Assembly: GCA_963782525.1 (NCBI GenBank)
Contig: CAWAKC010000001.1
Span: forward strand, 224,001 to 288,000
Direction: 5' to 3'
DNA from: Candidatus Bathyarchaeota archaeon
GTDB lineage: Archaea; Thermoproteota; Bathyarchaeia; Bathyarchaeales; Bathycorpusculaceae
Length of the DNA stretch: 64,000 bases
Below are positions 7,456 to 24,750 of the stretch, one piece after another; within the stretch, counting starts at the first letter, position 1, and each line of letters opens with the position of its first letter. The notes below the pieces were generated by a model. The model ran no database searches. It was not told the origin of the DNA and worked only from the letters and a program-made list of their open reading frames with translations. A program made the position numbers and the translations under genes.

Positions 7456-8489
7456 CAGAATACAAAATATCCTTAATTCCCGGCGATGGCATCGGGCCAG
7501 AATTAACCGAAGCCACCCTAAAAGTCTTAGATGCAGTTCAGAAAAAATTCGGCGTTAAACTGCAGATCATTGAAGCTGAAGCAGGCGACGTTGCCCTTGA
7601 AAGAGTAGGCGCCGCATTGCCAGCAGATACCATTGAGAAAGTTAAGAACTCCCACGCTTGCCTAAAAGGACCCGTAGGCGAATCAGCAGCAGACGTCATC
7701 GTTAAATTGCGCGTCATGTTTGACCTTTACGCTAACCTACGCCCATTAAAGGCATACCCCAACGTTCCAGTCGCCAGACCAGACATCGACATGCTCTTTG
7801 TCCGCGAAAACACTGAAGACGTCTACAAAGGCTTAGAATTCACAATCGGCGCAGACACCACCTTGTGCCTACGCGTTATCACACGAGGAAACTGCGAACG
7901 CATCGCTCACAAAGCCTTCCAAATGGCACGCCTACGCAACGGCAAAAAGAAAGTCACAGCCATTCACAAAGCCAACGTTATGCGTGTAACCGACGGTTTA
8001 TTTCGTGACGTCTGCCGCGAAGTCAGCAAAGGCTATCCCGACATCGCGTTTAACGAACTCTACGTTGACGCCGCATCCATGCGACTAATTAAAGAACCAG
8101 AAATATTCGATGTCTTCTGCACTTGCAACATGTTCGGCGACATCCTCAGCGATGAAGCCGCACAGCAAATCGGAGGCTTAGGCATGGCTCCAGGCGCAAA
8201 CGTCGGCGAAAACTTTGGATTATTCGAACCCATCCATGGCTCCGCACCAAACAGAGCAGGAAAACATACCGCCAACCCAATCTCCATGATACTTTCAGCG
8301 AAAATGATGCTGGAGTGGCTGGGAGAAAAATACGGTGACAAGAAATGCTTACAAGCAGGCGCAGCCATAGAGAACGGTGTAGTTTACGCTTTGCGTAACC
8401 GTCAATCTGTTCCAGACTGCGGCGGCACCACCACAACCGTGGGCATGGCAGAAGCTATCGCTGCAGCCCTAACTGTGAAAAGTGGCTGA
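7452..8489 (+). CDS. leuB: 3-isopropylmalate dehydrogenase
   Basis: PGDGIGPE, RENTED, NMFGDILSD, FEPIHGSAP motifs; ATGA overlap with leuD. Confidence 0.88.
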   Translation: MTEYKISLIPGDGIGPELTEATLKVLDAVQKKFGVKLQIIEAEAGDVALERVGAALPADTIEKVKNSHACLKGPVGESAADVIVKLRVMFDLYANLRPLKAYPNVPVARPDIDMLFVRENTEDVYKGLEFTIGADTTLCLRVITRGNCERIAHKAFQMARLRNGKKKVTAIHKANVMRVTDGLFRDVCREVSKGYPDIAFNELYVDAASMRLIKEPEIFDVFCTCNMFGDILSDEAAQQIGGLGMAPGANVGENFGLFEPIHGSAPNRAGKHTANPISMILSAKMMLEWLGEKYGDKKCLQAGAAIENGVVYALRNRQSVPDCGGTTTTVGMAEAIAAALTVKSG

Positions 8490-10020
8490 AAGCATGACCA
8501 ACAAAACCTCAAAAAGCATCCGAATTTTTGACACAACCTTAAGAGACGGGGAACAAACCCCCGGAGTTTCTTTAACTGCAGACGATAAGATTGAGATAGC
8601 AGTCCAACTCAGCAAACTAGGCGTAGACGTTATTGAGGCGGGTTTTCCGAGTTCTTCTGATGGCGAAAAAAAAGTCGTCAAAGATATTGCCAACTTGGGT
8701 TTGACCTCAGAAATCTGTAGTTTATCTCGGGCAACGAGAGGAGACATTGACGCAGCAATAGCTTGTGACGTTGATTTAGTTCACGTTTTCATACCAACCT
8801 CACCAGTCCAGATGAAGTATGCAGTTAATTTGACTCCCGAACAGGTATTGGCTTCCACAGTTGATTCGGTTTCTTACGTGAAGAAGCATGGTGTAAAATG
8901 TGAGTTTTCGCCGATGGATGCCACACGTTCCGAGATGCCCTTCTTAAAACAGGTTTGTAAAGCCGCACAGGATGCAGGCATGGATAGCCTAAATGTACCT
9001 GACACCGTCGGCATCATGATTCCAAAAACCACAATAAAACTCATTGAAGAATTAAAAACCGTAGTCACCGTGCCTATAAGCACCCATTGTCATGACGACT
9101 TTGGTTTAGCTGTCGCAAACAGTCTAGCAGCGGTCGAAGCTGGCGCAGCCCAAGTGCATGTCGCCGTCAACGGCTTAGGTGAACGGGCAGGCAACGCGTC
9201 GCTAGAAGAAGTCGTGATGGCGCTGCACATTATTTACAAGTACAAAACAAACGTCAACACCCGTTTACTCTACAGCACATCGCGAATGGTTGCGTCCTTA
9301 ACTGGCATTACGGTGCAAGCTAACAAGGCAATCGTTGGCGAAAACGCCTTTGCCCACGAATCAGGCATCCACACACGCGGTGTAACAGAGAAACCGTTAA
9401 CTTTCGAACCAATAAACCCCGAATTAGTCGGCAGAACAAGAAAACTTGTCGCAGGCAAATTAGCTGGAACCCGAGGAATAAAAGCGGAACTTGAAGAAAT
9501 CGGCATCCACCCAACCGAAGAGCAACTCAAAGAAATCGTTCAACGCGTCAAAGATTTAGGCGACAAAGGCAAGATGGTCACTGATGCCGACTTGATTGCG
9601 TTGACTTCTGCTGTGATGGGTGAGGTGCTCGGTGAAGAAAAAATCATTGACTTATGCGACATGGCAGTCGTCACAGGCATCAAAGTCATTCCAACCGCTT
9701 CTGTACGCTTAATTTTAAATGGCAAAGAATACGTTGCCGCCGAAACAGGCGTGGGACCAGTAGACGCTGTTTTGAAGGCAATTCAGAAGTTGACCAGCAG
9801 CATAGAAAACATCCGCCTAAGCGAATACCGACTCGAAGCTATCACAGGCGGTTCAAACGCGGTGGCTGAAGTCGTTATAAAAGTCGAGGATGAAAAAGGC
9901 AACATCGTCAGCGCCCGAGCAGCCCGAGAAGACATCGTTATGGCATCTGTTGAAGCAATGATAAATGGCATAAACAAACTCTTGCTAAAGAACCATCAAA
10001 AGCAGGGAAACAAAAAGTGA
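8482..10020 (+). CDS. leuA: 2-isopropylmalate synthase (LeuA/CimA family)
   Basis: DTTLRDGEQTPG, HCHDDFGLA, GERAGNA, AFAHESGIH and a C-terminal regulatory domain; citramalate synthase activity not excluded. Confidence 0.85.
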   Translation: MAESMTNKTSKSIRIFDTTLRDGEQTPGVSLTADDKIEIAVQLSKLGVDVIEAGFPSSSDGEKKVVKDIANLGLTSEICSLSRATRGDIDAAIACDVDLVHVFIPTSPVQMKYAVNLTPEQVLASTVDSVSYVKKHGVKCEFSPMDATRSEMPFLKQVCKAAQDAGMDSLNVPDTVGIMIPKTTIKLIEELKTVVTVPISTHCHDDFGLAVANSLAAVEAGAAQVHVAVNGLGERAGNASLEEVVMALHIIYKYKTNVNTRLLYSTSRMVASLTGITVQANKAIVGENAFAHESGIHTRGVTEKPLTFEPINPELVGRTRKLVAGKLAGTRGIKAELEEIGIHPTEEQLKEIVQRVKDLGDKGKMVTDADLIALTSAVMGEVLGEEKIIDLCDMAVVTGIKVIPTASVRLILNGKEYVAAETGVGPVDAVLKAIQKLTSSIENIRLSEYRLEAITGGSNAVAEVVIKVEDEKGNIVSARAAREDIVMASVEAMINGINKLLLKNHQKQGNKK

Positions 10021-10829
10021 AAGTATCCTACCAGGGTGAAACTGGAGCCTACAGTGAAATGGCTGTCTTCAAGTTTTTCGGCAGCAAAGTAGAGCCAGTT
10101 CCCTGCAAAGATTTCCGAGACGTTTTTGAATCCGTTAAAACAGGCGCAGTTCCTAATGGTGTGGTTCCGATTGAGAACTCTATTGAAGGCAGCGTCAACC
10201 AAAACTACGACTTATTCCTCGCTTACGACCTCAAAGTTTGCGGAGAAGTCGCAGTAAAACTTGCCCATGTCCTGATCGCTAACCCCCAAACCAAATTCGA
10301 AAACATCGAAACAGTCTACTCGCACCCCCAAGCACTAGCACAATGCCGCAGTTACCTTGAAAAACACAGATGGGAAATTATCCCCGCCTACGACACCGCC
10401 GGAGCAGTCAAAGCCATCAAAGAAAAAGGACTTTTTAACGCTGCGGCCATTGCAAGCGAAAAAGCCGCAGACCTCTACGACATGAAGATTCTTGCCCGAG
10501 ACATCGCTGATAACCCATCAAACTACACGCGATTTCTTGTCCTATCCCATGAAGATGCCGCACCAACTGGAGACGACAAAACCTCAATAATATTTTCAGC
10601 TAAACATGCTCCCGGCACCTTATACCATGCTCTTGGAGAGTTTGCATCAAGAAACATCAACCTAACAAGAATCGAATCCAGACCCACAAAAACAACTGCT
10701 TGGCAATACAACTTTTACTTGGACTTTGAGGGCCATCGAACCGAGAAACGTTGTGCAGAAGCACTGCAAGCCCTAGAAAAGTATGCGACTTTCGTGAAAA
10801 TTCTGGGATCATACCCCAGAGCAATCTAA
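10017..10829 (+). CDS. pheA: prephenate dehydratase
   Basis: GAYSE, VPIENSIEGSV, SHPQALAQC, NYTRF and ACT domain NLTRIESRP. Confidence 0.95.
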   Translation: MKVSYQGETGAYSEMAVFKFFGSKVEPVPCKDFRDVFESVKTGAVPNGVVPIENSIEGSVNQNYDLFLAYDLKVCGEVAVKLAHVLIANPQTKFENIETVYSHPQALAQCRSYLEKHRWEIIPAYDTAGAVKAIKEKGLFNAAAIASEKAADLYDMKILARDIADNPSNYTRFLVLSHEDAAPTGDDKTSIIFSAKHAPGTLYHALGEFASRNINLTRIESRPTKTTAWQYNFYLDFEGHRTEKRCAEALQALEKYATFVKILGSYPRAI

Positions 10830-12453: not shown

Positions 12454-13326
12454 CTATTTTTCTGTTGATTCCAGCATTTTGTACATAACGTCATAGGACT
12501 CGGCGAAGTCGCTGTCGGTTTCTTTGAGCTTTTTCTTTAGCTGCTCCATACGTTCGACAATTGCTTTGGTGTCTTTGTTTTTAATTAGTGTAAGCAGTTC
12601 TTGGGCTTTAGCCATGAAAGTATCTTCGATTTTTTCGAGTTCAGGTAGGCTTGTTTGAACACTCGCATAGAGATCGGGAGTCTCCAGCGCCGTAGCTTCT
12701 GCCAAGGTGAAGAGCATTCGGTAGGTGGTGCCAGCAACTTTTTTGGTTTCAGACAAATTCTTCTGTTCGAGCAAGGTTTCACAGGCGACTAAGCCCAGAA
12801 AATGCGGCAGCCCAAGCACGACTGACATTAATTCGTCGTGTTTTTTGGGGGTCATTATGAAAACGTGTGCGTCTTCTCGCTCAAGCCACAGCTTATAATG
12901 CTCAGCTAACTCGTTCTCTTTGGAGTTTGTTGGAGTTAAAACGTAAGCTTTGTGTTTGACCCCGTTGCTTCCTGGACCGAAAACGGGATGCGTACCCAAA
13001 ACAGTTGCTTCTTTTATGTATTGGTGCATGATTTTTACGGGGGATTCTTTGATTGAGCAAATATCCATAACCACTTGCCCTTCATGCAAGACAGGGCTGA
13101 TCGTTTTAACGACCTCTTCGATGGCATTTATGGATACGCAGAGGAGAACCTGGTCAGCATCCGCCACTGCTTCCTCGAAGTTTGTAGTTAAATCAACGAG
13201 GAGGGCTTTTTGTTTTTCAAGTTTCGCTTTTTTTCTATCCGCTAAAATAACGTCGTAACCTTTAGACTGAAAGAAATCGGCGAACCAAACGCCCATCTTG
13301 CCAGCCCCGATTACGGCGATTTTCAT
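12454..13326 (-). CDS. tyrA: prephenate/arogenate dehydrogenase
   Basis: GAGKMG Rossmann motif, DICSIK, HPVFGP, HDELMSVVLGLPH. Confidence 0.93.
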   Translation of the reverse strand: MKIAVIGAGKMGVWFADFFQSKGYDVILADRKKAKLEKQKALLVDLTTNFEEAVADADQVLLCVSINAIEEVVKTISPVLHEGQVVMDICSIKESPVKIMHQYIKEATVLGTHPVFGPGSNGVKHKAYVLTPTNSKENELAEHYKLWLEREDAHVFIMTPKKHDELMSVVLGLPHFLGLVACETLLEQKNLSETKKVAGTTYRMLFTLAEATALETPDLYASVQTSLPELEKIEDTFMAKAQELLTLIKNKDTKAIVERMEQLKKKLKETDSDFAESYDVMYKMLESTEK

Positions 13327-14405
13327 TGCTTTGCTGCCTCACAGATTTTATCAAGTCCAACCTCGATTTCGTTGTCTGGCGCAGTTAGGGAGATGCGAAA
13401 GTGCTCGCGGTAATCGCCAAATGCGGTGCCTGGAGCCACAGCTACGCCTTTGTCGAGCAGGTTTAGAGTATATTTTTCGCTGTCTAAACCGTCGAGTTTC
13501 GGGAACACGTAGAAGGGAGCGTCGGGTTTGGTAAATTTGAAGCCTGCCGCCGAGAGCTTAACACTTGCAAGGTCTGCCCGTTTTTTGTATTTGGCTTTAA
13601 TTTTGGATGCAATTTGCTTATGCAGTTCTAACCCTTTGAGAGCTGCGTCTTGGATAAAGACCGGTACGTTATTGATGGTGATTTGGTTGAGTTTAGTTAT
13701 TTGGTCGATTAACATTTTGTTTGCGATTAAGTAGCCTATGCGCCAGCCGGTCATAGTGAAGGTTTTAGAAAAGCCATTTGAGAGGATGTGTTTGCATTCG
13801 CCGTCGTAGTCGAGGATACTTTTAGTTTTCACAAAGCTGATTGCGCCATAAACCTCGTCGGAGAGTATGGTTACTCCTTTTTTGTTGGCTAACTTGACTA
13901 TGCCGTCGAGGGTTTTAGTATCCATGACTTTGCTGGTGGGGTTGTTTGGGTTATTGAGGATAATCATTTTGGTTTCATTGTCAATTAATGCATCGAGCTT
14001 GGCGAGGTCAATTTTCCAGCCGTCTTCCATTTCGGTTCGCAGCAGCTGGGTTTTGGCTCCGAAGCTTTTCGCGATTAAATCGTAAGCTGTCCAGTACGGC
14101 GTGGGAATTATGACGTTGCCGCCGTTTTTAAGCATCAAAAACATCGTGGCGAATATGCCCCATTTTGAACCCGGAGTAATAACCACGTTTTCTGCTTTAA
14201 CGCCGTGGCCCTCAGCGATTTTCTGACGCAATTTAAGCTCGCCATAGGAAGAGGAATACTTGGTTTTTCCGGACTTCATAGAAGCGTATGCAGCTTCTAC
14301 GATTTCGGGCGGCGTAGCCATGTCTGGGTCGCCAAGGTTTAATCGAATTATCTTTTTTCCTTCACTTTCCAATTTGAGGGCTTTCTCGTTTATCTCGTAG
14401 AGCAT
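13323..14405 (-). CDS. class I/II PLP aminotransferase (likely aromatic/aspartate)
   Basis: NNPNNPT, SDEVY, GFSKTFTMTGWRIG motifs; lies between chorismate mutase and tyrA. Confidence 0.9.
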   Translation of the reverse strand: MLYEINEKALKLESEGKKIIRLNLGDPDMATPPEIVEAAYASMKSGKTKYSSSYGELKLRQKIAEGHGVKAENVVITPGSKWGIFATMFLMLKNGGNVIIPTPYWTAYDLIAKSFGAKTQLLRTEMEDGWKIDLAKLDALIDNETKMIILNNPNNPTSKVMDTKTLDGIVKLANKKGVTILSDEVYGAISFVKTKSILDYDGECKHILSNGFSKTFTMTGWRIGYLIANKMLIDQITKLNQITINNVPVFIQDAALKGLELHKQIASKIKAKYKKRADLASVKLSAAGFKFTKPDAPFYVFPKLDGLDSEKYTLNLLDKGVAVAPGTAFGDYREHFRISLTAPDNEIEVGLDKICEAAKQ

Positions 14406-14433
14406 ACAGGTTTGGACTCTCCGTTAGAGCGCT

Positions 14434-14694
14434 TTATTCTTGAACAGCACTGCACATATTAACTATTTCGCGGTAAACCGCTTCAACGTGCCCAGCGGCA
14501 AGACCCAATTCAGCCCCTTTTGCCCGTATCCGCTTGAAAACTTCGTTCTCTCTGGAGAGGTCGCGGACTGGTTTTCCCTGCTTTTTCTTCGCAGCGCCAA
14601 TTGCCTTACAAGTTTTAACACGCTCGCAGAGAGCGGTTAAGATTTGGTCGTCGATTTCATCCACGTTTTTTCTGAGCTTTGGGATTTCAGTCAT
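14434..14694 (-). CDS. chorismate mutase (AroQ type)
   Basis: LRKNVDEID...ER...IGAAKK...RDLSRE...Q pattern. Confidence 0.9.
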   Translation of the reverse strand: MTEIPKLRKNVDEIDDQILTALCERVKTCKAIGAAKKKQGKPVRDLSRENEVFKRIRAKGAELGLAAGHVEAVYREIVNMCSAVQE

Positions 14695-14695
14695 G

Positions 14696-15799
14696 TTAAT
14701 GCTCCTTGAGGACCTTGGGGATGTAACCTGAACGGATCAGGTGGTCAGCTAAAGTTATTGCAGCGGCTGTTTCGATGGCGGGCACCGCCTTGGGTACGAC
14801 ACAGGGGTCGTGTCTGCCCTTAACGCTTATTGAGGCTTCTTCCATTGAGGAGAGGTTAACGGTTTTCTGTTCTTTAGCAATAGACGGCGTAGGCTTAATC
14901 GCCACACGAATCATAATTGGCATACCGCTGGATAAACCGCCCAAGATGCCTCCTGCGTTCTCCGTGGAAGTTATGATCTTCCCGTTCTTGAGCAGAAAAG
15001 CGTCGTTGTTCTGTGAACCAGTCAACTCAGTAGCCCTAAACCCAGCGCCAAACTCAACACCCTTTACAGCGGGAACACTAAACAATGCTTTCGCTAAATC
15101 AGCATCCAATGAATCAAACAATGGCTCGCCAATTCCTGCTGGCATGTTTAGTGCAATGCATTCTATGACTCCGCCCAAACTTTCGCCTTCTTTTCGAGCA
15201 TTCACGATGGCTTCCTCCATTTTTTCTGCGCATGCCAAGTCGGGGCACCTTGTTGCAGCCGCATTTTTGTTTTTGCGGATTTCTGCTGCACTGAATTTTT
15301 TGTCGGTTCTAATTTTCCCTATCGATTGGGTATAAGCTAAAACATCGATGTCGTATCTTCCGAGAAGTTTTTTTGCTATGGTTCCAGCCATGATTAGGGC
15401 GACGGTAACTCTGCCTGAGAAGCGTCCGCCGCCTCGGTAATCGTTGAAGCCGCCGTATCGGATGCGGGCGGGGTAGTCGGAGTGGCCGGGGCGTGGCAAG
15501 TCTTTAATGTCTTCATAATCACTTGAGTTAGTTTCTTTGTTCTCAACTGTCAAAGCGATTGGAGCACCAGTCGTGAACCCATTAAATAATCCGCTGAGAA
15601 TCTTAACAATGTCCTTCTCGATACGGGCAGAAACAATTTTGGGCTCCGCTGGAATCCTACGGTCAAGCTCTTCCTGAAAATCTGCTTCTGAGAGCGGCAA
15701 TCCAGCTGGGCAACCGTCTACGACTACGCCAACGACTTTGCCGTGACTCTCACCAAACGTGGTAACTACGAATTCTTTACCTATCGAATTTCCCGCCAA
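14696..15799 (-). CDS. aroC: chorismate synthase
   Basis: TFGESHG, RPGHSD, GGGRFSGR, KPTPSI, GRHDPC motifs. Confidence 0.97.
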   Translation of the reverse strand: MAGNSIGKEFVVTTFGESHGKVVGVVVDGCPAGLPLSEADFQEELDRRIPAEPKIVSARIEKDIVKILSGLFNGFTTGAPIALTVENKETNSSDYEDIKDLPRPGHSDYPARIRYGGFNDYRGGGRFSGRVTVALIMAGTIAKKLLGRYDIDVLAYTQSIGKIRTDKKFSAAEIRKNKNAAATRCPDLACAEKMEEAIVNARKEGESLGGVIECIALNMPAGIGEPLFDSLDADLAKALFSVPAVKGVEFGAGFRATELTGSQNNDAFLLKNGKIITSTENAGGILGGLSSGMPIMIRVAIKPTPSIAKEQKTVNLSSMEEASISVKGRHDPCVVPKAVPAIETAAAITLADHLIRSGYIPKVLKEH

Positions 15800-17075
15800 C
15801 TAAGTTAGCTCCTAATTGTTTTAGATGAGTGAAGAACTGCGGATAAGACTTTCTGACGCACTCAGCGTTCTGAATAGTGGTTTCTCCTTCAGCGCCAAGT
15901 GCAGCGACAGCGCATGCCATGGCGATTCGATGATCATTATGCGGGTCAATCATGGCTCCGTGCAGACGCCGTCCGCCTTCAACGATTAACCCATCTTCGG
16001 TAGCGCTGATGTCGGCACCCATTTTTCCCAGTTCGACATAGAGCGATTGAAGTCTATCAGACTCCTTGAGCCTGAGCCTATTTGCTCCAAAAATGTGCGA
16101 TGTACCCTCTGCGTAACATGCAAGGGCTGCGATTGCGGGAACAAGATCAGGAATATTCTTAGCATCCACTTCTAAGGGTTTGAGTAACCTGCCTAAGCCT
16201 TCGATTTCAATGCTGTCTGCGCAAACTTTCCCGTTGACGCCCATATGCTTGAGGAAGCCCATTATGGATTTGTCGCCTTGAACGCTGCTGTATTCAAGGT
16301 TGTTTATTTGAACTTTCGAGGTGGTTATTGCCGCCGCAACAAGAAGAAAAGCAGCTGAAGAGAAATCGCCCGGAACCCTTCCGTCCGCTGGATTGTAGCT
16401 TTGGCCTACTGGAATATGAATGTGATTTTCATGTGCAGGAACCTTAATTCCATGGTCAGCAAGAACTGCCTCAGTCATTTTGACGTAATCCTCAGACTCC
16501 AACGGCGAAGTTAACGTTATTTCAGTATCCACTTGAGCATTTGGGCAAGCAAACATCAACCCTGAAATGAATTGTGAACTTACATCGCCGGGAATGGATG
16601 TTTCGCCTCCAACGATGCCGCCGCCCTCCACGAAAACGGCGTCTTTGTCACCGAATTTTCCAACATGTACTTTGGCACCGAGTTCACTGAGGCTTGCCAA
16701 TAATGGTTCTACGGGTCGCTTCTCGATTGAACCTCTAAACACCAATGTTGAAGGACCCTTTGCCAGAGCAGCCATGGGTATCATGAAACGCAATGTGGCA
16801 CCCGATTCTCCGCAGTCAATTGGCTCTTTTGCACCTTTAAGCTTCAATGCTCCTTGGATTGTCCAGCAACCGTCAGCAGTCGTGACTTTTGCACCCAAAG
16901 CTTTGACAGCACGCAGGGTGGCTTCTGTATCCTCCGATAATAGGGGATTAGATATTTTGGAGGAACCAGCCGAAAGAGCAGCGGCAATAATCATCCTCTG
17001 AGTATAAGACTTAGACGGTGGAGCACAAACTTGACCACTTAACTGTCCAGTTTTCTTAACAATTACGTCTACCAT
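15777..17075 (-). CDS. aroA: 3-phosphoshikimate 1-carboxyvinyltransferase (EPSP synthase)
   Basis: PPSKSYTQR, GESGATLRF, SSQFISG, RLKESDR, DHRIAM motifs; start placed at ATG 17075. Confidence 0.96.
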   Translation of the reverse strand: MVDVIVKKTGQLSGQVCAPPSKSYTQRMIIAAALSAGSSKISNPLLSEDTEATLRAVKALGAKVTTADGCWTIQGALKLKGAKEPIDCGESGATLRFMIPMAALAKGPSTLVFRGSIEKRPVEPLLASLSELGAKVHVGKFGDKDAVFVEGGGIVGGETSIPGDVSSQFISGLMFACPNAQVDTEITLTSPLESEDYVKMTEAVLADHGIKVPAHENHIHIPVGQSYNPADGRVPGDFSSAAFLLVAAAITTSKVQINNLEYSSVQGDKSIMGFLKHMGVNGKVCADSIEIEGLGRLLKPLEVDAKNIPDLVPAIAALACYAEGTSHIFGANRLRLKESDRLQSLYVELGKMGADISATEDGLIVEGGRRLHGAMIDPHNDHRIAMACAVAALGAEGETTIQNAECVRKSYPQFFTHLKQLGANLVGGKFDR

Positions 17076-17947
17076 ACTATTGCACCTTGGGCTTTTTTGC
17101 AATTTATTTGTGTCTGCAAGATTTCGCCTTCATACTTTTGCAGTGCAGCCTTTACAGAATCGACTTTATCCTTGGGAACCACCGCGGTTACGCCGGGTCC
17201 TTTGCCGCAGAGCCCAGACGCCACCGCTCCAGCAGCCAATGCGTCGATAGCTATTGCGGTGTTGAAGTTGGAGGCTGAAGAGTAGATTAAGCCGTTGATG
17301 GTCAGGGCTTCCCAAACTTTCCCTTCCAAAGCCTTTTCGAAAGCGATTTCCACGAGGGGTTTAACGGATTTGAGCCGGTTTATATGGGAGTCGATGGTGT
17401 AGGCTTTTTGGGGTGGCACATGGAAGAGAACCTTCAAATCCTCATTCAGCGGCATTTGCTTGATTAGTTCCCGTTTTAGGTTATCGGTGATGACTATGCC
17501 GCCAAAATAGGAAGCACAAGCATCATCAAACGCACCTGTAACCGTAACTTTGGCATCAAAAGCCGCTTCAACACCTATGTTGATGATTTCTAAGTCGCTG
17601 AGCTTTTTGCCCAGTGCCGTTGTGGTGGCTAGTGCAGTTGCATTTGCGGCTGCGCTACTACTTTTGAGCCCCCTTGCGATGGGAATGTTTGAAGTGGTTT
17701 TTACTTTCACGCCAAAACTTTTCTCTAAATTGAACAGTTGCAGAACTCGGGTTACGGTTTTTTCTATGAGGAGCGTGCTTTCAGTGGGGTCAGAAGCTAT
17801 CTCAGTTCTGATAACGCCTGGTTCATCAGTTAATTTGACTTCAGCTTTAGTCCACAAATCAACCCCAAACGCGGCGCCTTTTCCCAGGGCAATCGCGTTC
17901 ACGATCGTTGCAGCCCCATGAACAACAGCCACAGCTTTCCCAGTCAC
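17069..17947 (-). CDS. aroK: archaeal shikimate kinase (GHMP family)
   Basis: IVNAIALGKGAAFG, PIARGLKSSSAA, TGAFDDA motifs. Confidence 0.93.
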   Translation of the reverse strand: MTGKAVAVVHGAATIVNAIALGKGAAFGVDLWTKAEVKLTDEPGVIRTEIASDPTESTLLIEKTVTRVLQLFNLEKSFGVKVKTTSNIPIARGLKSSSAAANATALATTTALGKKLSDLEIINIGVEAAFDAKVTVTGAFDDACASYFGGIVITDNLKRELIKQMPLNEDLKVLFHVPPQKAYTIDSHINRLKSVKPLVEIAFEKALEGKVWEALTINGLIYSSASNFNTAIAIDALAAGAVASGLCGKGPGVTAVVPKDKVDSVKAALQKYEGEILQTQINCKKAQGAIVW

Positions 17948-17949
17948 AA

Positions 17950-18807
17950 TTACACCTTCTGCAAATGATTAAGCGCTGCCTGCCTCATAACTTCAACGGG
18001 AGCAGACTTCCCCGTCCAGATTTCAAATGATGCCGCACCTTGATAAATCAACATCTCAACTCCGCTGACGACTTTGGCGCCTGCGGCTTTGGCGTCTTTT
18101 GCTAGTTGGGTTTCGATTGGATTGTAAACGATGTCTATTACTGCCAAATTGGGTCCTATCAGCTTAGGCGGAATTAGGCTTTCGTCGGGTTTGGGTTTCA
18201 TCCCAACGGATGTTGCGTTGATTAGGATGTCTGAGTCTTGGAGGTTGTGCTGTATTTCCTTTGGCGAGAGGGCGCCTGAAACTATTTTCTTGTTAGCGGT
18301 CTTTTCCAGCAGTTTAGCTAATTCTTGGGCTGGTTTTAGGGTTCGGTTCAAAACTGCCAGCTCGTCGGATTCTCGGGCCATCGTGTAAGCTATGGCTCTT
18401 GCCGCTCCTCCTGCGCCAAGCAACAGAATTTTCCTACCTTTGGGTTCCACATCGTTTTCCCTTAAGGCTTTTAGTGCGCCGACTCCATCGGTGTTAAAGC
18501 CAAAAAGCTTGCCGTCCCGATTTAAGATGGTATTAACTGAGTTAATTATTTGCGCGGATAAATCTACTCGGTCTAAATATTTCAGGATTGAACTTTTATG
18601 TGGCATGGTAACGTTTAGCCCTCTTATGTTCAGGGCGCGCATGCCGTTCACCGCGTTTTCCAGTCCTACAGGCTTCACCTTGAATGCTAAAAATGTGTAG
18701 TCGAGTTTGAGGGCTTGAAAAGCTGCATTATGCATTATTGGGCTTAAGGTGTGTTCTATCGGGTCGCCGATGACTCCGCAAACACGTGTTTTCCCCGTTA
18801 TAACCAT
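17950..18807 (-). CDS. aroE: shikimate dehydrogenase
   Basis: LSPIMHN, NVTMPHK, NTDG, GAGGAARA, MLIYQG motifs. Confidence 0.95.
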   Translation of the reverse strand: MVITGKTRVCGVIGDPIEHTLSPIMHNAAFQALKLDYTFLAFKVKPVGLENAVNGMRALNIRGLNVTMPHKSSILKYLDRVDLSAQIINSVNTILNRDGKLFGFNTDGVGALKALRENDVEPKGRKILLLGAGGAARAIAYTMARESDELAVLNRTLKPAQELAKLLEKTANKKIVSGALSPKEIQHNLQDSDILINATSVGMKPKPDESLIPPKLIGPNLAVIDIVYNPIETQLAKDAKAAGAKVVSGVEMLIYQGAASFEIWTGKSAPVEVMRQAALNHLQKV

Positions 18808-18808
18808 G

Positions 18809-19492
18809 CTACTTTACCCCTAAAAGACCGTAAGCAGTCCTCATTTCACCTATGCTCATCTGGCCAGCGGCGGTTTCACTTCCATTTTCCAGAGAAGCGA
18901 AAGTAAAGAATGCCCCAAACATTGGCGAGAGAAGCCTTGAAACCTTACCATGTTCACCCATGCAGAAACAAACCAGTTTACCTTTGCTGGATGCAAAAGA
19001 AACAAAACCTAGAACCGGAAGGTTGTCTTCTACATGGTTGGCGGTTGTCACAATCTTGCAAATGCTCGCTCTACTGGCAAGCTCCTTATCAAGAACATCC
19101 TCCATAGCTGTAACGCTGAGTGCACCGTCGAATTTGTGATATGAAACGATTGGTTTAGCCCCCAACTGCTTAAGTTGGCTGATTGTTTCTATATGTTTTG
19201 GGCTTGATAAGTTAACGTCAACATATTCAAAACCGCTCTTGGCAGCAAAAAGTAGTGTTTGTTGCCATTCAATCTCTGTGCCCGAGAAGTATCCCTTTTC
19301 GCTTTGAAGTTTGTTAGCGGCTATTAAAGGGATTTTTGTACTCGCCGTTATGTCTGATAATTTTCTGGAAATTTCAAGCCAATCCAGTCGGACCTCAATA
19401 AAGTCTGCTTTGGCTTTCTCTGCCTTCTCAATTAGATTTAATGCTTCTATGTTGTTTTTTGGGAGAATCGAAACGCAGATTCTCGCGGTCAC
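18809..19492 (-). CDS. aroD: type I 3-dehydroquinate dehydratase
   Basis: EVRLD, IVSYH, MGEHGKVSRL, AAGQ motifs; operon context. Confidence 0.88.
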   Translation of the reverse strand: MTARICVSILPKNNIEALNLIEKAEKAKADFIEVRLDWLEISRKLSDITASTKIPLIAANKLQSEKGYFSGTEIEWQQTLLFAAKSGFEYVDVNLSSPKHIETISQLKQLGAKPIVSYHKFDGALSVTAMEDVLDKELASRASICKIVTTANHVEDNLPVLGFVSFASSKGKLVCFCMGEHGKVSRLLSPMFGAFFTFASLENGSETAAGQMSIGEMRTAYGLLGVK

Positions 19493-20499
19493 TTTTCAAT
19501 CACCGTTTCTTCTGGCACAGATATGCCGAAGTGTCGTCCTCCCTTCGCAGCTAAATGTACGATGACTTCGTCGTTGGGTTTGAGTTCGGTGACTGGTTTT
19601 GAGGCTGTTGGTGTGACTAAGCGTATGGTTTCGGCGTTTTGGAGTATGGTTTTTATTAATTTGCCTTCGACCTGTGCCTCTACTAGAATGAGAGGTCGGA
19701 TTTCAATTTTTATGCGTCCCACGTTGGTCGTTCGGGTTTTGCCTTCGCGGTTGACGATTATGACTTCGTCGCCTGCTTTGAATTCTTGGAGGTACCTTGT
19801 AGTTTGTAAATTGCCCAAAGTATACATCGATAATGTCCCGGCATTGACTCTGAAGGGACGTGAGGCAACGTAAGGGTTCTCGTTAACTTCTGCTTCGATC
19901 AGGAATAAACCTGCGCTTTGGCTTCCAACTAGCATACCTTCGCCCTGCTTCATCAACTCGCATGTGTCTACACAGACCCGAGCGCCGGTGCCGATGGGTT
20001 TTGTGGAGACGATTTTGGCGATTGCCATTTCCAGCTGTAGGGCTTCTGGCTTCACTATGGCGATGGTTTTTAGGAGCTCCTCTGGATTTGAAGTCTTGAG
20101 CAACACGCCATCGGTTCCTAACTCGAGCGTTTCAAGCGCCACTTTCGCTTCTTCAGCGTTGATGACTTCAGCTATAATCTTGCTCTTCCCTTTAACACGG
20201 GCAATCAAGTTTTCAAGAGGAATAACACGCCAATTCGCACAACTGATAAGCAAGTAACTTGCACCAGCCTCCGCTACTTTAACGGTTAAGTTCTCAGTTG
20301 ACTTGTCACTTAGACAGATTCTTGCAACCTTCTTCGTCACATCCAACTTTTGAGAATCTACCGATGGAGAGACAACTTTTAGGCTTTGTTTGTTTGCCAG
20401 AAAAGTGGTTTTGTCCCCTTCAACGATTGCATCAGCGTATTGGTTAACAAGTGTGGATAGGGCTTCTTTGTTTTCGGTTTCTACCCAAAGTTCCTTCAA
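19489..20499 (-). CDS. 3-dehydroquinate synthase II (oxidative deaminating, AroB')
   Basis: WRVIPLENLIA, RVCVDT, RPFRVNAG, LQNAETIRL, GRHFG motifs. Confidence 0.93.
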   Translation of the reverse strand: MKELWVETENKEALSTLVNQYADAIVEGDKTTFLANKQSLKVVSPSVDSQKLDVTKKVARICLSDKSTENLTVKVAEAGASYLLISCANWRVIPLENLIARVKGKSKIIAEVINAEEAKVALETLELGTDGVLLKTSNPEELLKTIAIVKPEALQLEMAIAKIVSTKPIGTGARVCVDTCELMKQGEGMLVGSQSAGLFLIEAEVNENPYVASRPFRVNAGTLSMYTLGNLQTTRYLQEFKAGDEVIIVNREGKTRTTNVGRIKIEIRPLILVEAQVEGKLIKTILQNAETIRLVTPTASKPVTELKPNDEVIVHLAAKGGRHFGISVPEETVIEK

Positions 20500-21287
20500 C
20501 GCTTTTCACCAAGAAACTTAAGCGCCTGCTCCACAGACGCGTTTTCATGAACGATCGCTGAAAGTGACTTTGACAATAGTGTTGGTTTGTCGCATTGGAA
20601 TATATTTCGCCCGATTGAAAGACCTGCAGCCCCTGCTTTCATGGCGTCAGCGGTGGTTTGCAGGATTTCCTCTAAGGTTTTGCACTTTGGTCCTCCAGCG
20701 ATGACGACTGGCACTGGACAGCTTTCGGTAACTGTTTTGAAACTATCTATGCTGCCTGTGTAGTTTGTTTTAATGATGTCTGCGCCAAGTTCAGCGCCGA
20801 TTCGGGCAGCATGAGCAACAACGTTTACGTCGTGTTCATTCGGTATTTTTGGTCCCCGCGGATACATCATAGCTAAAAGCGGCATCCCGAAAACGTCACA
20901 TTCGTCGGCAACTTTGCCGAGGTTGTGTAGCATTTTGTCTTCATCCTGCGAACCGACGTTAACATGGACACTAACGGCATCTGCGCCGACTCGTATGGCG
21001 CCTTGAACGCTGCAGACTTGGACTTTTCCGTTTAAGTTGGGGCTAAGATTCGACATGCCAGAGAGCATTACAATTAAGCCAGCGTTTTCAACGTCAACTT
21101 GTTTGGCTATGCCCTTGTGGACAAGGATAGCGTCGACTTTGCCCTTTACTAGTTGATCAATGATTTGCTGCATGTTGGTTATGCCTTGGATGGGTCCGAC
21201 GGTGACGCCGTGATCCATAGGCACGATTACTGTGTGGTTGTCTTTTTGCATGATTCTTCTTAGTCTACGGGTTTTTCCTGAATTCAT
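20496..21287 (-). CDS. 2-amino-3,7-dideoxy-D-threo-hept-6-ulosonate (ADH) synthase, class I aldolase (AroA')
   Basis: VPMDHG, MMYPRG, AELGADIIKTNY, IAGGPK, GRNIFQ motifs; adjacent to DHQ synthase II. Confidence 0.9.
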   Translation of the reverse strand: MNSGKTRRLRRIMQKDNHTVIVPMDHGVTVGPIQGITNMQQIIDQLVKGKVDAILVHKGIAKQVDVENAGLIVMLSGMSNLSPNLNGKVQVCSVQGAIRVGADAVSVHVNVGSQDEDKMLHNLGKVADECDVFGMPLLAMMYPRGPKIPNEHDVNVVAHAARIGAELGADIIKTNYTGSIDSFKTVTESCPVPVVIAGGPKCKTLEEILQTTADAMKAGAAGLSIGRNIFQCDKPTLLSKSLSAIVHENASVEQALKFLGEKR

Positions 21288-21297
21288 CTTTTTCCAC

Positions 21298-22533
21298 CTA
21301 GTGTGTTTTAAGCGAGTTTTTAATTAACTTTAATGCCTTTTCTTTATCATTCCAATCTACAAACAACAAAATACTTGAGGTGATAGTGAGGATACCTGAG
21401 ATGTTTATGCCGTTAACTCGCAGGTCTTCGCTGATTTTGCCGATGATGCCGTGGGTTTCTTCCAATCCGACTCCGCTGGTCTTGAGAAAGACAAGATCTT
21501 TTTTCACAGCCATAGCTATGGTTTCTTTGTTGCTTATGGTTATTTTGTGGATTTGGTTGAAAAGTGTATCGATGTTTTTTTCCTGGGGAACGTAGAGGAT
21601 GATTGAATTAGTGTTCATGGACATGCCGAGAAGCATAGAGTTTTCTTTGACTTTCTCAACCATTTCTGTAACGACTTGTGGGTTGGCTGATATGCCGTTT
21701 CCAATCACAGTTATCTCTGAGACGGGGGTAGGATGAGCGATTTCAACATCAAGCTCTGAGGCTAAACTGCCTTTAATTAGGGTGCCTGCCCTGCTCAAAT
21801 CGCTATGTGCATTGCTGATTACTTTAACGTCTATGTCTTTGGGTTTGTACTTGAGGGCTTTGCTATGAATGAATTTAGCGCCTGAATCTGCTAACCCAAC
21901 AAGTGTGGTTACGTCGGTTTCTGGGAGCAGTTTGGGGGACGCAATGATTTTGGGGTCGCCGGACATAATGCCGTCGGCATCTGTTACCAATACTACTTGG
22001 TTTGCGTTGATTCCCTGTGCGATTATGAATGCGGTGGTGTCGCTTCCGCCTCTGCCCAAAGTGGTGATTTTTCCATCTTTGGTTTTGCCCACGAAACCCG
22101 CTATTACGGGTATTGTGCCTTTTTCGACGAGTGGTAGGATGCATTCTTTGATGTTTTTGTCGCATTCTTTGAGGATTGGGTTGGCGTTTTGGAAGGAGTC
22201 GTCGGTGATTATTGGCCATTTGTTATCCATGGGGTCGAAGTAGCATGCGTCGACACCATTGTTTCTCAAGGCTGCGGCGAATATGCGTACGCTGGTGCGT
22301 TCACCCATGGAGAGGATGTCGTCTAATTCGTGTTTCTGGAGTTTTCCGTTCGAAGTGTTTTTGGCGGTGGTCATGAGGACATCGGTTGTTTTGCCCATAG
22401 CGGAGACTACGACGGCGATTTTAGTGCCTTTTTTAGCTTCATTAACAACAGCAACTACCGCTTTGAGGAGTCTCTCATGGTCAGCGAGGCTAGAGCCACC
22501 GAATTTAACAACTATAGTTTTGCTAGTTTGCAT
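21298..22533 (-). CDS. aspartate kinase
   Basis: VKFGGSS, VVSAMG, TLGRGGSDTTA motifs and C-terminal ACT-like domains. Confidence 0.9.
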   Translation of the reverse strand: MQTSKTIVVKFGGSSLADHERLLKAVVAVVNEAKKGTKIAVVVSAMGKTTDVLMTTAKNTSNGKLQKHELDDILSMGERTSVRIFAAALRNNGVDACYFDPMDNKWPIITDDSFQNANPILKECDKNIKECILPLVEKGTIPVIAGFVGKTKDGKITTLGRGGSDTTAFIIAQGINANQVVLVTDADGIMSGDPKIIASPKLLPETDVTTLVGLADSGAKFIHSKALKYKPKDIDVKVISNAHSDLSRAGTLIKGSLASELDVEIAHPTPVSEITVIGNGISANPQVVTEMVEKVKENSMLLGMSMNTNSIILYVPQEKNIDTLFNQIHKITISNKETIAMAVKKDLVFLKTSGVGLEETHGIIGKISEDLRVNGINISGILTITSSILLFVDWNDKEKALKLIKNSLKTH

Positions 22534-22552
22534 TTAGGTACCCCCGTTTTTC

Positions 22553-22590
22553 GCCCAGAACTATTCTCAAAAAATTTGTTAGTTCTGGGC
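22553..22590 (-). promoter_or_regulatory. leader hairpin (attenuator-like)
   Basis: Perfect 11-bp stem GCCCAGAACTA/TAGTTCTGGGC with a 16-nt loop containing U6; starts at the base after the leader stop and ends 19 nt before the aspartokinase ATG. Confidence 0.75.
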
Positions 22591-22677
22591 TTATGGAAAA
22601 TGGTAATAATAAAAATAGTAGTCGAAGCTAGGAAACAGTGACGCAGTGATGTTGATTTTGTTTTTTGCGTTGAGCAT
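22591..22677 (-). CDS. Tyr/Phe-rich leader peptide of the aromatic amino-acid operon (28 aa)
   Basis: Translated by hand: MLNAKNKINITASLFPSFDYYFYYYHFP*; 5 Tyr and 4 Phe in the last 14 codons; between promoter and hairpin. Confidence 0.78.
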   Translation of the reverse strand: MLNAKNKINITASLFPSFDYYFYYYHFP

Positions 22678-22710
22678 TGCTTCGAACCTGCCAATCAGTT
22701 CATCTTCCAA

Positions 22711-22728
22711 AAAATATAAGCGTTTCGG
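22711..22728 (-). promoter_or_regulatory. BRE/TATA-like promoter of the aromatic operon
   Basis: Minus strand CCGAAACG-CTTATATTTT; implies a start site near 22690, just upstream of the leader ATG. Confidence 0.65.
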
Positions 22729-22938
22729 ATTCAAGCTAAAGTTTAACTAATAATTTTTTGCAGTAGGACCATTTTCTGCCCTGTTTTGTTCATTCGATGG
22801 GTTATTTGAAACCATTTGGAATTCATTGTAGAAACCTAATTGAATTAGTTTATATTGGCATTTTTTAGCTAACTTGTGTGCTCTCAGCAGATTTTTATTC
22901 CCGATTCCCCTAGTACAAATCGGTTTTGGTGAACAAAT

Positions 22939-24750
22939 ATGCAGGGATGGACAGGTTTTTTCTTAAAAGTCGAGTTAACCAAAAGCACGGCTGTTGCTGA
23001 ACCTTACAGTGAAGATTTAGCTTTGAATTTTTTAGGCGGCAGAGGCTTCGCAATCAAAATTCTCTGGGACACCCTAAAACATGGAACTGACCCTCTCTCA
23101 CCCGAAAACAAACTAATCTTCGCCACAGGACCACTAACGGGAATCGGACTACCCAACAGCGGCAAACTAGTCATTGCCTCAAAAAGCCCTTTGACCGGCG
23201 GTTACGGCGACGGCAACTCTGGCAGCTGGGCAGCTGTGAACATACGCAAAGCAGGCTACGACGCACTCGTCATCGAAGGCAAAGCATCCCAACCAGTCAT
23301 ACTTCACATCAAAAATCGAACGTGGGAGTTTTTGGATGCGGGGGATCTGTGGGGTAAAAGCTCCTTTGAAGTCGAGGACCAACTCAGAAAAAAATATTCC
23401 AAGTTAGCAGGCATAATGTCCATCGGACCTGCAGGAGAGAACCTTGTAAAGTTCGCAACAGTGGTTTCTCAGAATGGACGTGCGGGTGGACGACCTGGGA
23501 TGGGCGCTGTCATGGGCTCAAAAAATCTCAAAGCCATTGTAGTCGAAGGTACCCAACCAATCCCCCTCGCTTTTCCCGATGAAATGAAAAAATTAGCTGT
23601 TGACGGCTACAAGGAACTTTTAACTAAACCACTCTATAGTTTCTGGAAAAGGCAAGGCACTATGTCCACGGTTGACTGGTGCCAAGAAAACAGCTGTCTT
23701 CCAACGCACAATTACAGGCAAGGCGTTTTCGACAAGGCAGAAGGCATAAGCGGCTTTACGATGGAGAAGATGAAGGTTTCCAACCGCGGCTGCCCACAGT
23801 GCAACATGACCTGCGGAAACGTGGTTAAGGACAGTGAAGGAAAAGATTCAGAGCTGGATTATGAGAACGTGGTTATGCTTGGCTCCAACATTGGTTTGGG
23901 AAACCTTGCGCAAGTAGCTACCTTAAACCGGTTGGCAGACGAATTCAGCTTTGATGGTATTTCTCTTGGGAGCGTAATTGGGTTTGCCATGGAAGCTTCG
24001 GAGAAGGGGCTAATTCCCGAGAAGATTGGTTGGGGCGATTTTGAAGCGATTAAGGCATTGATTAACGATATTGCGTACAGGCGAGGTTTGGGTGCGGTTT
24101 TAGCGGAAGGTGTCCGATCCGCAGCCGCAACCATTGGCAAAGGCTCTAGCGATTGGGCGATGCATGTTAAAGGCTTAGAAGTCTCCGCCTACGACTGCCA
24201 CACCGCACCAGGCATGGCGTTGGCATACGGAACCAGCTCAATTGGCGCCCACCACAAAGACGCTTGGATAATAACTTGGGAACAGAAATATGGCAGAGAA
24301 AAATACGACGAAGCAAAAGTCGACCATCTAATCCAAACCCAACTCCTACGCGGCGGAGCCTTCGAAGCACTCACCGTTTGCCGTTTTCCACACGGCTCAT
24401 TGGGCTTTGAGCTCGAATGGTACCAAAAGTACCTGCGGGCTTCAACTGGACGGAACTTTTCTATGGATCAGCTAAACCAGATTAGCGACAGAATACTTAC
24501 TTTAATTCGTGCTTTCTGGGTGCGGGAATACGGTGGCAAGTGGAGTCGTGATTTGGATGTTCCGCCAATGCGATGGTTCAAAGAGCCACTAACCGAAGGA
24601 CCCTTGAAGGGCGCTGTGCTTGATTTGGAAAAATACAACAAGATGTTGGACATTTACTATCAGAAGCGCGGCTGGAGCGAAGAGGGTGTTCCAACAAAAG
24701 AAACGTTGGAGAGGTTAGGGCTGGCTGACGTAGCAAGTCACTTAAGTTAA
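22939..24750 (+). CDS. tungsten-dependent aldehyde:ferredoxin oxidoreductase family protein
   Basis: KSPLTGG, GRPGMGAVMGSKNLKAI, CPQCNMTC, DYE and HVKGLE motifs. Confidence 0.93.
   Translation: MQGWTGFFLKVELTKSTAVAEPYSEDLALNFLGGRGFAIKILWDTLKHGTDPLSPENKLIFATGPLTGIGLPNSGKLVIASKSPLTGGYGDGNSGSWAAVNIRKAGYDALVIEGKASQPVILHIKNRTWEFLDAGDLWGKSSFEVEDQLRKKYSKLAGIMSIGPAGENLVKFATVVSQNGRAGGRPGMGAVMGSKNLKAIVVEGTQPIPLAFPDEMKKLAVDGYKELLTKPLYSFWKRQGTMSTVDWCQENSCLPTHNYRQGVFDKAEGISGFTMEKMKVSNRGCPQCNMTCGNVVKDSEGKDSELDYENVVMLGSNIGLGNLAQVATLNRLADEFSFDGISLGSVIGFAMEASEKGLIPEKIGWGDFEAIKALINDIAYRRGLGAVLAEGVRSAAATIGKGSSDWAMHVKGLEVSAYDCHTAPGMALAYGTSSIGAHHKDAWIITWEQKYGREKYDEAKVDHLIQTQLLRGGAFEALTVCRFPHGSLGFELEWYQKYLRASTGRNFSMDQLNQISDRILTLIRAFWVREYGGKWSRDLDVPPMRWFKEPLTEGPLKGAVLDLEKYNKMLDIYYQKRGWSEEGVPTKETLERLGLADVASHLS

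Follow-up and report, generated by a model that had tools for sequence, protein, structure and literature searches.

Can an archaeon read its supply of tyrosine and phenylalanine from the position of a ribosome on a short leader peptide? The question is raised by a stretch of 64,000 nucleotides (nt) from a Candidatus Bathyarchaeota genome (assembly GCA_963782525.1, contig CAWAKC010000001.1; hereafter the window), in which an operon for aromatic amino acid biosynthesis, starting with an aspartokinase gene, is preceded by a 28-codon open reading frame (ORF) rich in Tyr and Phe codons and by a hairpin directly behind its stop codon. An earlier note on this DNA had proposed the arrangement as a candidate attenuator. 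Leader-peptide attenuation is a textbook bacterial mechanism, which needs ribosomes that trail the RNA polymerase. Judged from sequence comparisons, we consider it probable (roughly 70%) that the element is a ribosome-mediated sensor of Tyr/Phe supply for the aspartokinase/shikimate/chorismate/tyrA operon. Because the comparative test passes across several orders, a Tyr/Phe-sensing leader peptide is the best reading of the locus. Here, we will lay out the evidence for this reading, the ways in which such a leader might act, and the explanations that compete with it.

All leader features are read on the minus strand, with positions given as those of the 64-kb window. The leader is headed by a predicted promoter box of the BRE/TATA type (B recognition element and TATA box; CCGAAACG-CTTATATTTT, 22728-22711). 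A GAAA.GCTTATATTTT box is invariant in 23 of 23 aligned sequences of the genus, and this conservation, together with the archaeal consensus, suggests a promoter role for CCGAAACG CTTATATTTT. By the customary spacing from the TATA box, transcription is predicted to start at around 22692-22687. The 5′ untranslated region (UTR) contains CAGGTTCGAAGC (22690-22679), which carries an AGGT resembling a Shine–Dalgarno (SD) sequence 10-13 nt upstream of the leader ATG and which also forms the 5′ strand of a predicted helix, P1. The ORF runs from the ATG at 22677 to a TAA at 22593-22591 and encodes MLNAKNKINITASLFPSFDYYFYYYHFP; the last 14 codons include five for Tyr and four for Phe but none for Trp. 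The putative sensor is its U-rich tail (codons 15-27, 22635-22597, holding the five Tyr and four Phe codons), within which codons 17-20 (AGC TTC GAC TAC, 22629-22618) provide the 3′ strand of P1. At the first base 3′ of the TAA starts the stem of hairpin P2, a perfect 11-bp helix of GCCCAGAACTA and TAGTTCTGGGC (22590-22580 with 22563-22553) that encloses a 16-nt loop containing T6 (22574-22569). The post-stop segment has a fold energy of -20.9 kcal/mol (z = -4.8 versus shuffles). It is followed by an A-rich linker, GAAAAAC (22552-22546), and by the SD-like GGGGGT of aspartokinase (22545-22540), which lies 7 nt outside the P2 stem; a GGG(G/T)G SD is conserved 6-8 nt 3′ of the hairpin. The earlier note had described the same box (22728-22711), ORF (22677-22591), and hairpin (22590-22553), and every coordinate that it gave is correct. 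Its codon count for the end of the ORF is right as well, and so is its succession of stop codon, perfect 11-bp hairpin, GGGGGT, and aspartokinase ATG.

The leader is conserved across many relatives. To compare genomes, we used the maximum number of Tyr, Phe, or Trp residues among the last 12 residues of any upstream ORF (uORF) that ends 20-200 nt before a gene. At least six aromatics precede the orthologous aspartokinase in all 27 loci of a first set, composed of 24 same-genus genomes and three genomes of other families. The same number is reached in 34 of 40 further loci of the order (at least five in 39 of 40), which were chosen from the 73 non-genus genomes with an orthologue among 201 searched, and picked to span families f1, f5, f6, f7, f10, f11, and f12 (our own family labels). 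Extra loci of family f7 carry a leader in 20 of 20 cases, one of them with a TTG start. For the other orders of Bathyarchaeia, 67 of 301 genomes searched have an orthologue, and at least six aromatics are found in 16 of the 40 loci examined, belonging to families f14, f17, f19, f27, f30, f32, f34, and f37; family f17 contributes one locus only, with no convincing stem, and family f16 has a maximum of five. Other classes of the phylum gave a match in 65 of 401 genomes searched. Twenty loci were taken and 18 were usable; a clear leader plus hairpin is found in five of the 18, all of families f58 and f62, and a few others are marginal. The f58/f62 leaders read MFGYFYFYYFGP and ...FYGFYFYFYFGP, each followed by a stop codon that is taken into the stem. 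Three aspartokinase paralogues (34-39% identity) lie after another gene and have no leader; they were excluded from all later counts. The check proposed at the outset, for a Tyr/Phe-rich ORF upstream of orthologous operons in related genomes, is therefore passed strongly, and in several orders.

Chance alone rarely produces such a uORF. By the same statistic, 8 of the 805 remaining upstream regions in the genome have at least six aromatics, as do 3 of 1,340 shuffles of the observed regions. A scan for single-residue enrichment in the last 12 uORF codons, covering the regions upstream of 2,626 crude ORF calls of the genome, places the leader joint first. In a second scan of the genome, for uORFs with a strong fold within 9 nt of the stop, the leader has the strongest fold of 31 matches and is the sole one with a marked residue bias. 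The W-, M/H-, and Y-rich candidate ORFs found elsewhere in the genome were rejected, being either repeats or upstream of unrelated genes. Small ORFs that end in ...WWWWIKI before the stop lie at two places (C2:17804-17839 and C9:118344-118388, where C numbers denote contigs), and an identical 47-aa (amino acid) ORF, MKSKHLSGICKY..., lies at four (C1:377254, C10:83515, C11:10812, and C11:111789); all of these are repeats with no biosynthetic gene downstream.

Is the leader ORF under selection as a coding sequence? The 68 loci of the genus hold 57 distinct leader versions, and all 57 keep the ATG and the frame, with lengths of 24-29 codons. Their N-terminal two thirds varies freely, with indels in threes, and their tail is conserved, the AGC and TTC codons almost invariantly so and with third positions included. 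Tyrosine is encoded by 162 TAT versus 98 TAC codons in these leaders, while the long ORFs of the genome use 6,668 TAT versus 10,518 TAC; TAT codons, if read by wobble, would sharpen the sensitivity of a sensor. In 82 of 83 leaders, the last aromatic codon is among the three that precede the stop. The tail is U-rich (48% U). Between families, the tails are not alignable (e.g. SFDYYFYYYHFP, FYSFSYFFYN, FYRYRYFFYR, FFTYFSGYYPTF, FFGSFGYFGYRG, FFDFFYYYFYFE, NPYYYYYYYCFF, and FGYFYFYYFGP). Kept are the aromatic composition, which includes Trp in the tail of some relatives, and the position. Composition and position being retained rather than sequence is as expected for the sensing of codons.

The same data bear on a sensor of the TnaC kind, in which the aromatic nascent peptide would bind free Tyr or Phe in the exit tunnel and arrest at the stop would keep the hairpin open, making the free amino acid the signal. 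Such a sensor could account for the motif S-F-[DEG]-Y-x-F-Y-Y that is kept within the genus, for a stop that abuts the stem, and for the last codon before the stop, which is Pro in 18 of 83 leaders and Asn in another 18 of 83. Between families, however, composition is all that persists, with neither the motif nor its spacing; the S-F-D conservation is partly explained by helix P1, and the last residue is varied. We therefore regard peptide-based sensing as very improbable.

RNA data for this locus come from 4 of 20 RNA runs, which hold small shares of the stretch in the form of contigs from relatives that are ~95% alike. A 536-nt contig covers 22139-22671 without a break, and thereby the 5′ part of aspartokinase, the stem, and nearly the whole leader ORF; other contigs cover 22523-22728 and 22438-22593, and no meaning is attached to stretches that lack cover. 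The contigs, from which neither ends, strand, nor level can be read, are compatible with a single transcript and give a weak hint in that direction.

The second conserved element of the leader is its hairpin. When a stop-adjacent hairpin is required to begin within 6 nt of the stop, to have 9 pairs or more, and to reach -12 kcal/mol or lower, 77 of 83 leaders have one, versus 6 of 344 other uORF stops of the genome. The gap between stop and stem is 0 nt in 67 of 83 leaders and 5 nt at most, and several families draw the stop codon itself into the pairing. The stems are unrelated in sequence between families (GCCCAGAAC, GGAAGAGC, GAGGGGAAGGGGAGGG, GCUUCGAAACC, AGCCAAGAC, and AAGGGGACCGG), which amounts to family-level evidence for structure. 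Within the class of stems with GCCCAG/CUGGGC, 82% of cells are paired and 10 cells are changed on both sides, a number that 2 of 500 shuffles reach. Counted from the stop, the 3′ end of the stem is a median of 39 nt away, and the SD follows 2-8 nt after the stem in most loci. Outside the genus, 37 of 59 loci have at least three U in the 8 nt after the stem, followed by the SD; within the genus this is the case in 2 of 24 loci, where the linker is A-rich, and a U5-7 run lies inside the loop in 19 of 24. In the f58/f62 leaders, which end in ...GP before the stop, the paired stop forms part of a stem UAAGGGGACC...GGUCCUCUU, and the SD is found 2-3 nt after the stem.

Could the ORF be incidental, with the conserved letters serving as a DNA operator (boxes of the TTCGAA type, one where transcription starts and one 60 bp further on), as a protein-binding hairpin, or both, or with the ORF encoding a small functional protein? 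An operator or binding site would explain the near-invariance, third positions included, of GGTTCGAAGC (predicted start) and of AGCTTCGAC (within the ORF), and also why the genus keeps one stem sequence around a loop that drifts. Other families, however, lack the boxes and still keep an in-frame aromatic-rich ORF with an unrelated stop-adjacent hairpin. Changes in the boxes are compatible with pairing, such as an A to G that gives G-U, and the locus L044 shows (by eye) a 10-bp duplex. In addition, a loop length of 12-23 nt is unsuited to a dimeric DNA site, and no constraint is seen on the N-terminal two thirds of the peptide. A search of the genome for a regulon sharing the hairpin or box gave none: the hairpin is unique in the genome, and its arms occur at chance frequency. 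An incidental ORF is thus very improbable. Neither does the element belong to a leader family in Rfam, as cmscan of 21500-23500 with E-values up to 10 gave no such match; it yielded three chance-level matches (mir-581, SNORD43, and Afu_182), all far below their gathering scores.

How might the ribosome be coupled to the hairpin? Part of the answer may lie in a second pairing, which involves the initiation region of the leader. In all 57 distinct leaders of the genus, the 14 nt before the ATG, which include the AGGU, find their best partner within the ORF in the S-F-[DEG] codons. The resulting helix P1 has a median duplex energy of -12.5 kcal/mol and a median z of -2.8, and the few changes in its strands remain compatible with pairing. 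Families f7 and f6 have a pairing of another type, in which the last 17 nt up to the AUG form a duplex with the first 17 nt from the stop onwards, that is, with the 5′ arm of the hairpin (median -12.45 kcal/mol, versus -6.6 for shuffles). With both types, closure of the initiation region once the distal strand exists would favour the first, co-transcriptional ribosome. Folding the promoter-to-ATG alignment with RNAalifold paired the BRE with the ORF, which we rejected as an artefact, the BRE being untranscribed. The BRE CGAAACGCT (22721-22728) is indeed complementary to the S-F-D codons AGCTTCG (22621-22629, minus strand); as the BRE is not expected to be transcribed, this is treated as coincidence. 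The same AGCTTCG segment also pairs with the transcribed UUCGAAGC.

The f7/f6 pairing invites the classical bacterial solution, in which the hairpin, with a U-run in most families, would be a terminator, and the UTR segment 5′ of the AUG would pair with the 5′ arm as antiterminator whenever a ribosome is stalled in between, in a permuted order 2-1-3-4. The U-rich segments behind the stem outside the genus fit a terminator. In f7 and f6 the pairing reaches -9.4 kcal/mol or lower in 26 of 32 loci, versus 17% of shuffles, and is kept by two sequence subgroups. Over 80 loci, the 5′ arm exceeds shuffles in upstream complementarity (mean z -0.7), which the 3′ arm does not (-0.2). The logic, however, comes out wrong: with a gap of 0 nt in 67 of 83 leaders, a terminating ribosome covers the 5′ arm, and ample Tyr/Phe would thus block the terminator. 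If the stem were a plain terminator, starvation would shut the operon off, which is senseless for a biosynthetic operon. The antiterminator would also have to close around the stalled ribosome, and it covers only 8 of ~13 stem positions. In the genus of the window, the stem is followed by an A-run, with a U-run in only those 2 of 24 loci, and the duplex between UTR and 5′ arm is weak (~-8 kcal/mol). Finally, archaeal RNA polymerase is not known to need hairpins for termination. All in all, attenuation of the bacterial type is unlikely here.

The position of the stem points in the opposite direction. A ribosome protects ~12-13 nt beyond its A-site codon. As the stem abuts the stop, a terminating ribosome would open the base of the stem, while a ribosome stalled upstream would leave it intact. 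In bacterial attenuators, it is the 2:3 antiterminator, and not the terminator, that is placed in this way with respect to the leader stop, so that the adjacency of stem and stop gives P2 the geometry of an antiterminator. Tentatively, and with the odds somewhat against it, we therefore propose that the hairpin represents the ON state and is melted by ribosomes that reach the stop.

The sensor reading itself, which we consider probable, has the promoter-proximal 28-codon ORF translated. Under a shortage of charged tRNA-Tyr or tRNA-Phe, the ribosome would stall within the final 12 codons, nearly all of them for Tyr or Phe and biased towards the wobble-read TAT, and its position would determine whether the stop-adjacent hairpin can form. 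Under the more tentative ON-state proposal, a ribosome stalled at least four codons upstream would leave both arms free, so the stem would close as soon as it is transcribed and the U-rich spacer would be hidden. With ample Tyr/Phe, the ribosome would reach the stop, often after Pro or Asn, and sit on the 5′ arm. Behind the RNA polymerase, the loop, the 3′ arm, and the U-rich linker (~35 nt in all) would then stay single-stranded, and the exposed RNA may allow termination before aspartokinase, through an oligo-U tract, through the termination factor FttA/aCPSF1, a nuclease with a preference for U, or through both. Since archaeal terminators need no hairpin, a shield resembling an antiterminator would suffice, which would explain the missing terminator stem or 'region 4'. 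A conserved downstream partner of the 3′ arm was looked for in the first 170 nt of aspartokinase in the 24 genus loci and none was found, as the candidate positions scatter. The hairpin as ON state thus fits a stem that directly follows the stop, a leader in which no terminator stem is found, the presence of U-runs, and the Pro or Asn that often precedes the stop. According to a study of FttA, its site spans the nascent RNA from -1 to -36 (36 nt), with U-rich RNA at -30 to -36 (PMC11616081). This stretch presumably has to be single-stranded. The distance from stop to stem end is 39 nt, versus the 36 nt of the FttA site, and a U6 run lies in the loop.

Regarding the factor itself, the genome encodes two full-length aCPSF1/FttA equivalogs, on contigs C10 and C11 (L186:1222-3123, minus strand, and L187:217-2151, plus strand, where L numbers denote extracted loci; 897.7 and 906.1 bits versus a cut-off of 580.2), and a third, shorter beta-CASP gene on contig C6. 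One copy per genome is usual.

Alternatively, the output could be translational. The pyrimidine-rich 3′ arm and U-linker would then act as an anti-SD and the 5′ arm as an anti-anti-SD, so that ribosomes at the stop would mask the aspartokinase SD and stalled ribosomes would keep it open. The short distance between stem and SD suits such a switch, as do possible helices, such as CUUCC-GUUU-GGAGG and an 11-bp wobble-rich one in f7, and the composition of the arms, with at least 75% purine in the 5′ arm of 22 of 83 loci and in the 3′ arm of none (0 of 83). In a truncated model with the 5′ arm masked, 32 of 76 loci lose more than 0.2 in predicted accessibility of the SD, and 9 gain. This masking by the 3′ arm or tail was rejected, since it vanishes with the full leader, where predicted SD accessibility is 0.36 with a stalled ribosome versus 0.34 with one that has reached the stop (n=73, p 0.44). 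For the genus of the window, the effect is absent or reversed (0.35 versus 0.40, full leader), and at the window locus itself predicted accessibility is 0.45 with the hairpin free versus 0.43 when the 5′ arm is masked. Next to a stem of -17 to -25 kcal/mol the mini-helices are weak, and the sequestered start region of the leader argues against the steady flux of ribosomes that is needed. A translational switch is thus an unlikely account of the leader.

Returning to the Tyr/Phe-sensing leader, several points weigh against it or limit it. The anatomy of the sequence and its conservation are observed, while we infer translation, stalling, coupling, and the output step, and the reading presupposes that transcription and translation are coupled in Bathyarchaeia. 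Related genomes are non-independent samples, so that the figures above describe conservation and do not constitute proof. In the genus, the third positions of the tail are also conserved (AGC TTC GAC TAC TAC TTT TAT TAT), which indicates a constraint at the RNA level besides coding, in part helix P1. Contigs from RNA libraries possibly include DNA and cannot show ends. Aspartokinase occurs without a Tyr/Phe uORF in families f26 and f35 and in several families of other classes. As to the covarying stems that the earlier note had suggested looking for, stop-adjacent stems of unrelated sequence are present in different families; covariation inside the GCCCAG/CUGGGC class is slight, at 4 pairs versus a shuffle mean of 2.9. 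At the window locus, the hairpin is followed by the A-run GAAAAAC and no U-run. A pseudoknot between the U-run of the loop and the A-run behind the stem was tried and rejected, as their correlation is weak (rho 0.23, p 0.09). Blocking of FttA by a hairpin is our own supposition, and no supporting statement was found in the literature consulted. Lastly, scans of the genome for residue-biased small ORFs and for uORFs with stop-adjacent hairpins found no second amino-acid leader, so the organism shows no general use of the device, and no Trp-rich uORF was found before trpE, which is located on another contig.

In place of the Tyr/Phe leader, families f26 and f35 have other conserved uORFs, MGD[RHC][LV]FGDGVY... 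and MGGHLYWH..., respectively. These may be another regulatory peptide, or an RNA motif that reads as an ORF.

How does the leader compare with known systems? With pheL, trpL, hisL, and thrL of E. coli it shares a short leader ORF before a biosynthetic operon, with codons for the end product near its end, and pheL also ends in ...F-P-stop. A stable stem by the stop and a leader ribosome-binding site that pairs with a later segment are likewise common to bacterial leader-peptide attenuators. For pheL, PMC3082878 describes runs of Phe codons and attenuation control of pheA. The Bathyarchaeia leader differs in its archaeal BRE/TATA promoter, in that Tyr and Phe (in some relatives Trp) would be sensed for an operon of the whole common pathway, and in its single stem behind the ORF, with no terminator stem, 'region 4', or classical antiterminator found and no U-run at the locus. 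The pheL/thrL-like layout drawn in the earlier note stands for the short ORF with end-product codons, and at this locus not for the U-run after the hairpin; a mutually exclusive antiterminator was looked for and not found.

The favoured model also has a parallel in tnaC-tnaAB of E. coli, where a ribosome near the stop controls the access of a factor (Rho) to naked RNA and no terminator hairpin is needed. The signals differ, as tnaC responds to free Trp via the nascent peptide and induces a catabolic operon, while the Bathyarchaeia leader would likely respond to hungry codons, with FttA/aCPSF1 as the proposed factor and an RNA stem as the proposed shield. In leaders of the erm/cat and MifM/SecM types, a ribosome at the 3′ end of the leader also remodels a stem near the downstream SD. 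There, the SD is inside the stem, which is melted by the stalled ribosome; here, it is outside, and a stalled ribosome would leave the stem intact. The known control of aromatic and tryptophan genes in archaea is by DNA-binding repressors, e.g. TrpY. Such control serves the same physiological goal, and the element described here differs from it in being a transcribed leader with an ORF; an operator might still be present as well, in the conserved letters around the predicted start of transcription.

The leader-peptide sensor is thus a kind known from bacteria, and what is new is the domain, the two-residue specificity for an operon of the common pathway, and the single stop-adjacent stem. According to Blombach et al. 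2021 (PMC8448881), no archaeal example of transcription attenuation or antitermination is known. A search of the full-text literature found no archaeal leader-peptide sensor, Bathyarchaeia included, as all matches were bacterial, although small-ORF lists in the supplements of ribosome profiling (Ribo-seq) studies could hold cases. One mention of a 'leader peptide' in Bathyarchaeota concerns bacteriocin-type signal peptides (PMC6393860), and a Ribo-seq study of Methanosarcina mentions possible uORFs in general terms only (PMC11456600). That this is the first archaeal ribosome-mediated amino-acid attenuator, in which a single stem shields U-rich RNA from termination by oligo-U or FttA, and one that is ancient and widespread, is possible, yet we hold it to be doubtful; it would extend over several Bathyarchaeia orders and, in other classes of Thermoproteota, over at least two families (f58 and f62).

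If true, the reading would imply functional coupling of transcription and translation in uncultured lineages. The leader, conserved in dozens of genomes, would offer a mutable test object for such coupling and for conditional, possibly FttA-dependent, termination in archaea. It would also make amino-acid regulation of uncultured Bathyarchaeia readable from sequence alone, and a residue-biased uORF whose stop touches a stem would provide a search recipe for more archaeal leaders.

What would the leader control? The genome, at 2.87 Mb in 12 contigs with 42.9% G+C, has the aromatic operon on the minus strand of the window. The first gene, with its ATG at 22533, encodes aspartate kinase (21298-22533, 411 aa), which has the Pfam domains AA_kinase and ACT and matches NCBIfam NF005159 at 382.8 bits versus a cut-off of 379. 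It is followed by the genes for 2-amino-3,7-dideoxy-D-threo-hept-6-ulosonate (ADH) synthase (20496-21287) and dehydroquinate (DHQ) synthase II (19489-20499), aroD (18809-19492), aroE (17950-18807), the gene for an archaeal GHMP-type shikimate kinase (17069-17947), aroA (15777-17102), aroC (14696-15799), and the genes for chorismate mutase (14434-14694), an aminotransferase (13323-14405), and prephenate dehydrogenase (12454-13326). The genes after aspartokinase (12454-21287) lie on one strand with small gaps or overlaps, and the operon is probably co-transcribed. The operon is purely one of aromatic biosynthesis, plus an aspartokinase that feeds the archaeal ADH route. The route from aspartate semialdehyde into the shikimate pathway is archaeal, and aspartokinase supplies its precursor. 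The content given in the earlier note, from aspartokinase to chorismate mutase, aminotransferase, and tyrA and with no trp genes, holds true.

The gene for prephenate dehydratase, pheA (10017-10829, plus strand), lies outside the aromatic operon and on the opposite strand. A leuA-like gene (8482-10020), which itself comes after a leuB-like gene (7452-8489), overlaps pheA with its end, and no uORF before pheA was flagged in our scans. The string of leuB-like, leuA-like, and pheA genes (7452-10829, plus strand) converges on the end of the aromatic operon. At the other end, the divergent neighbour of the leader promoter encodes an aldehyde:ferredoxin oxidoreductase (AFOR_N and AFOR_C, 22939-24750, plus strand), with which the leader shares an intergenic region of ~260 bp, counted to the leader ATG.

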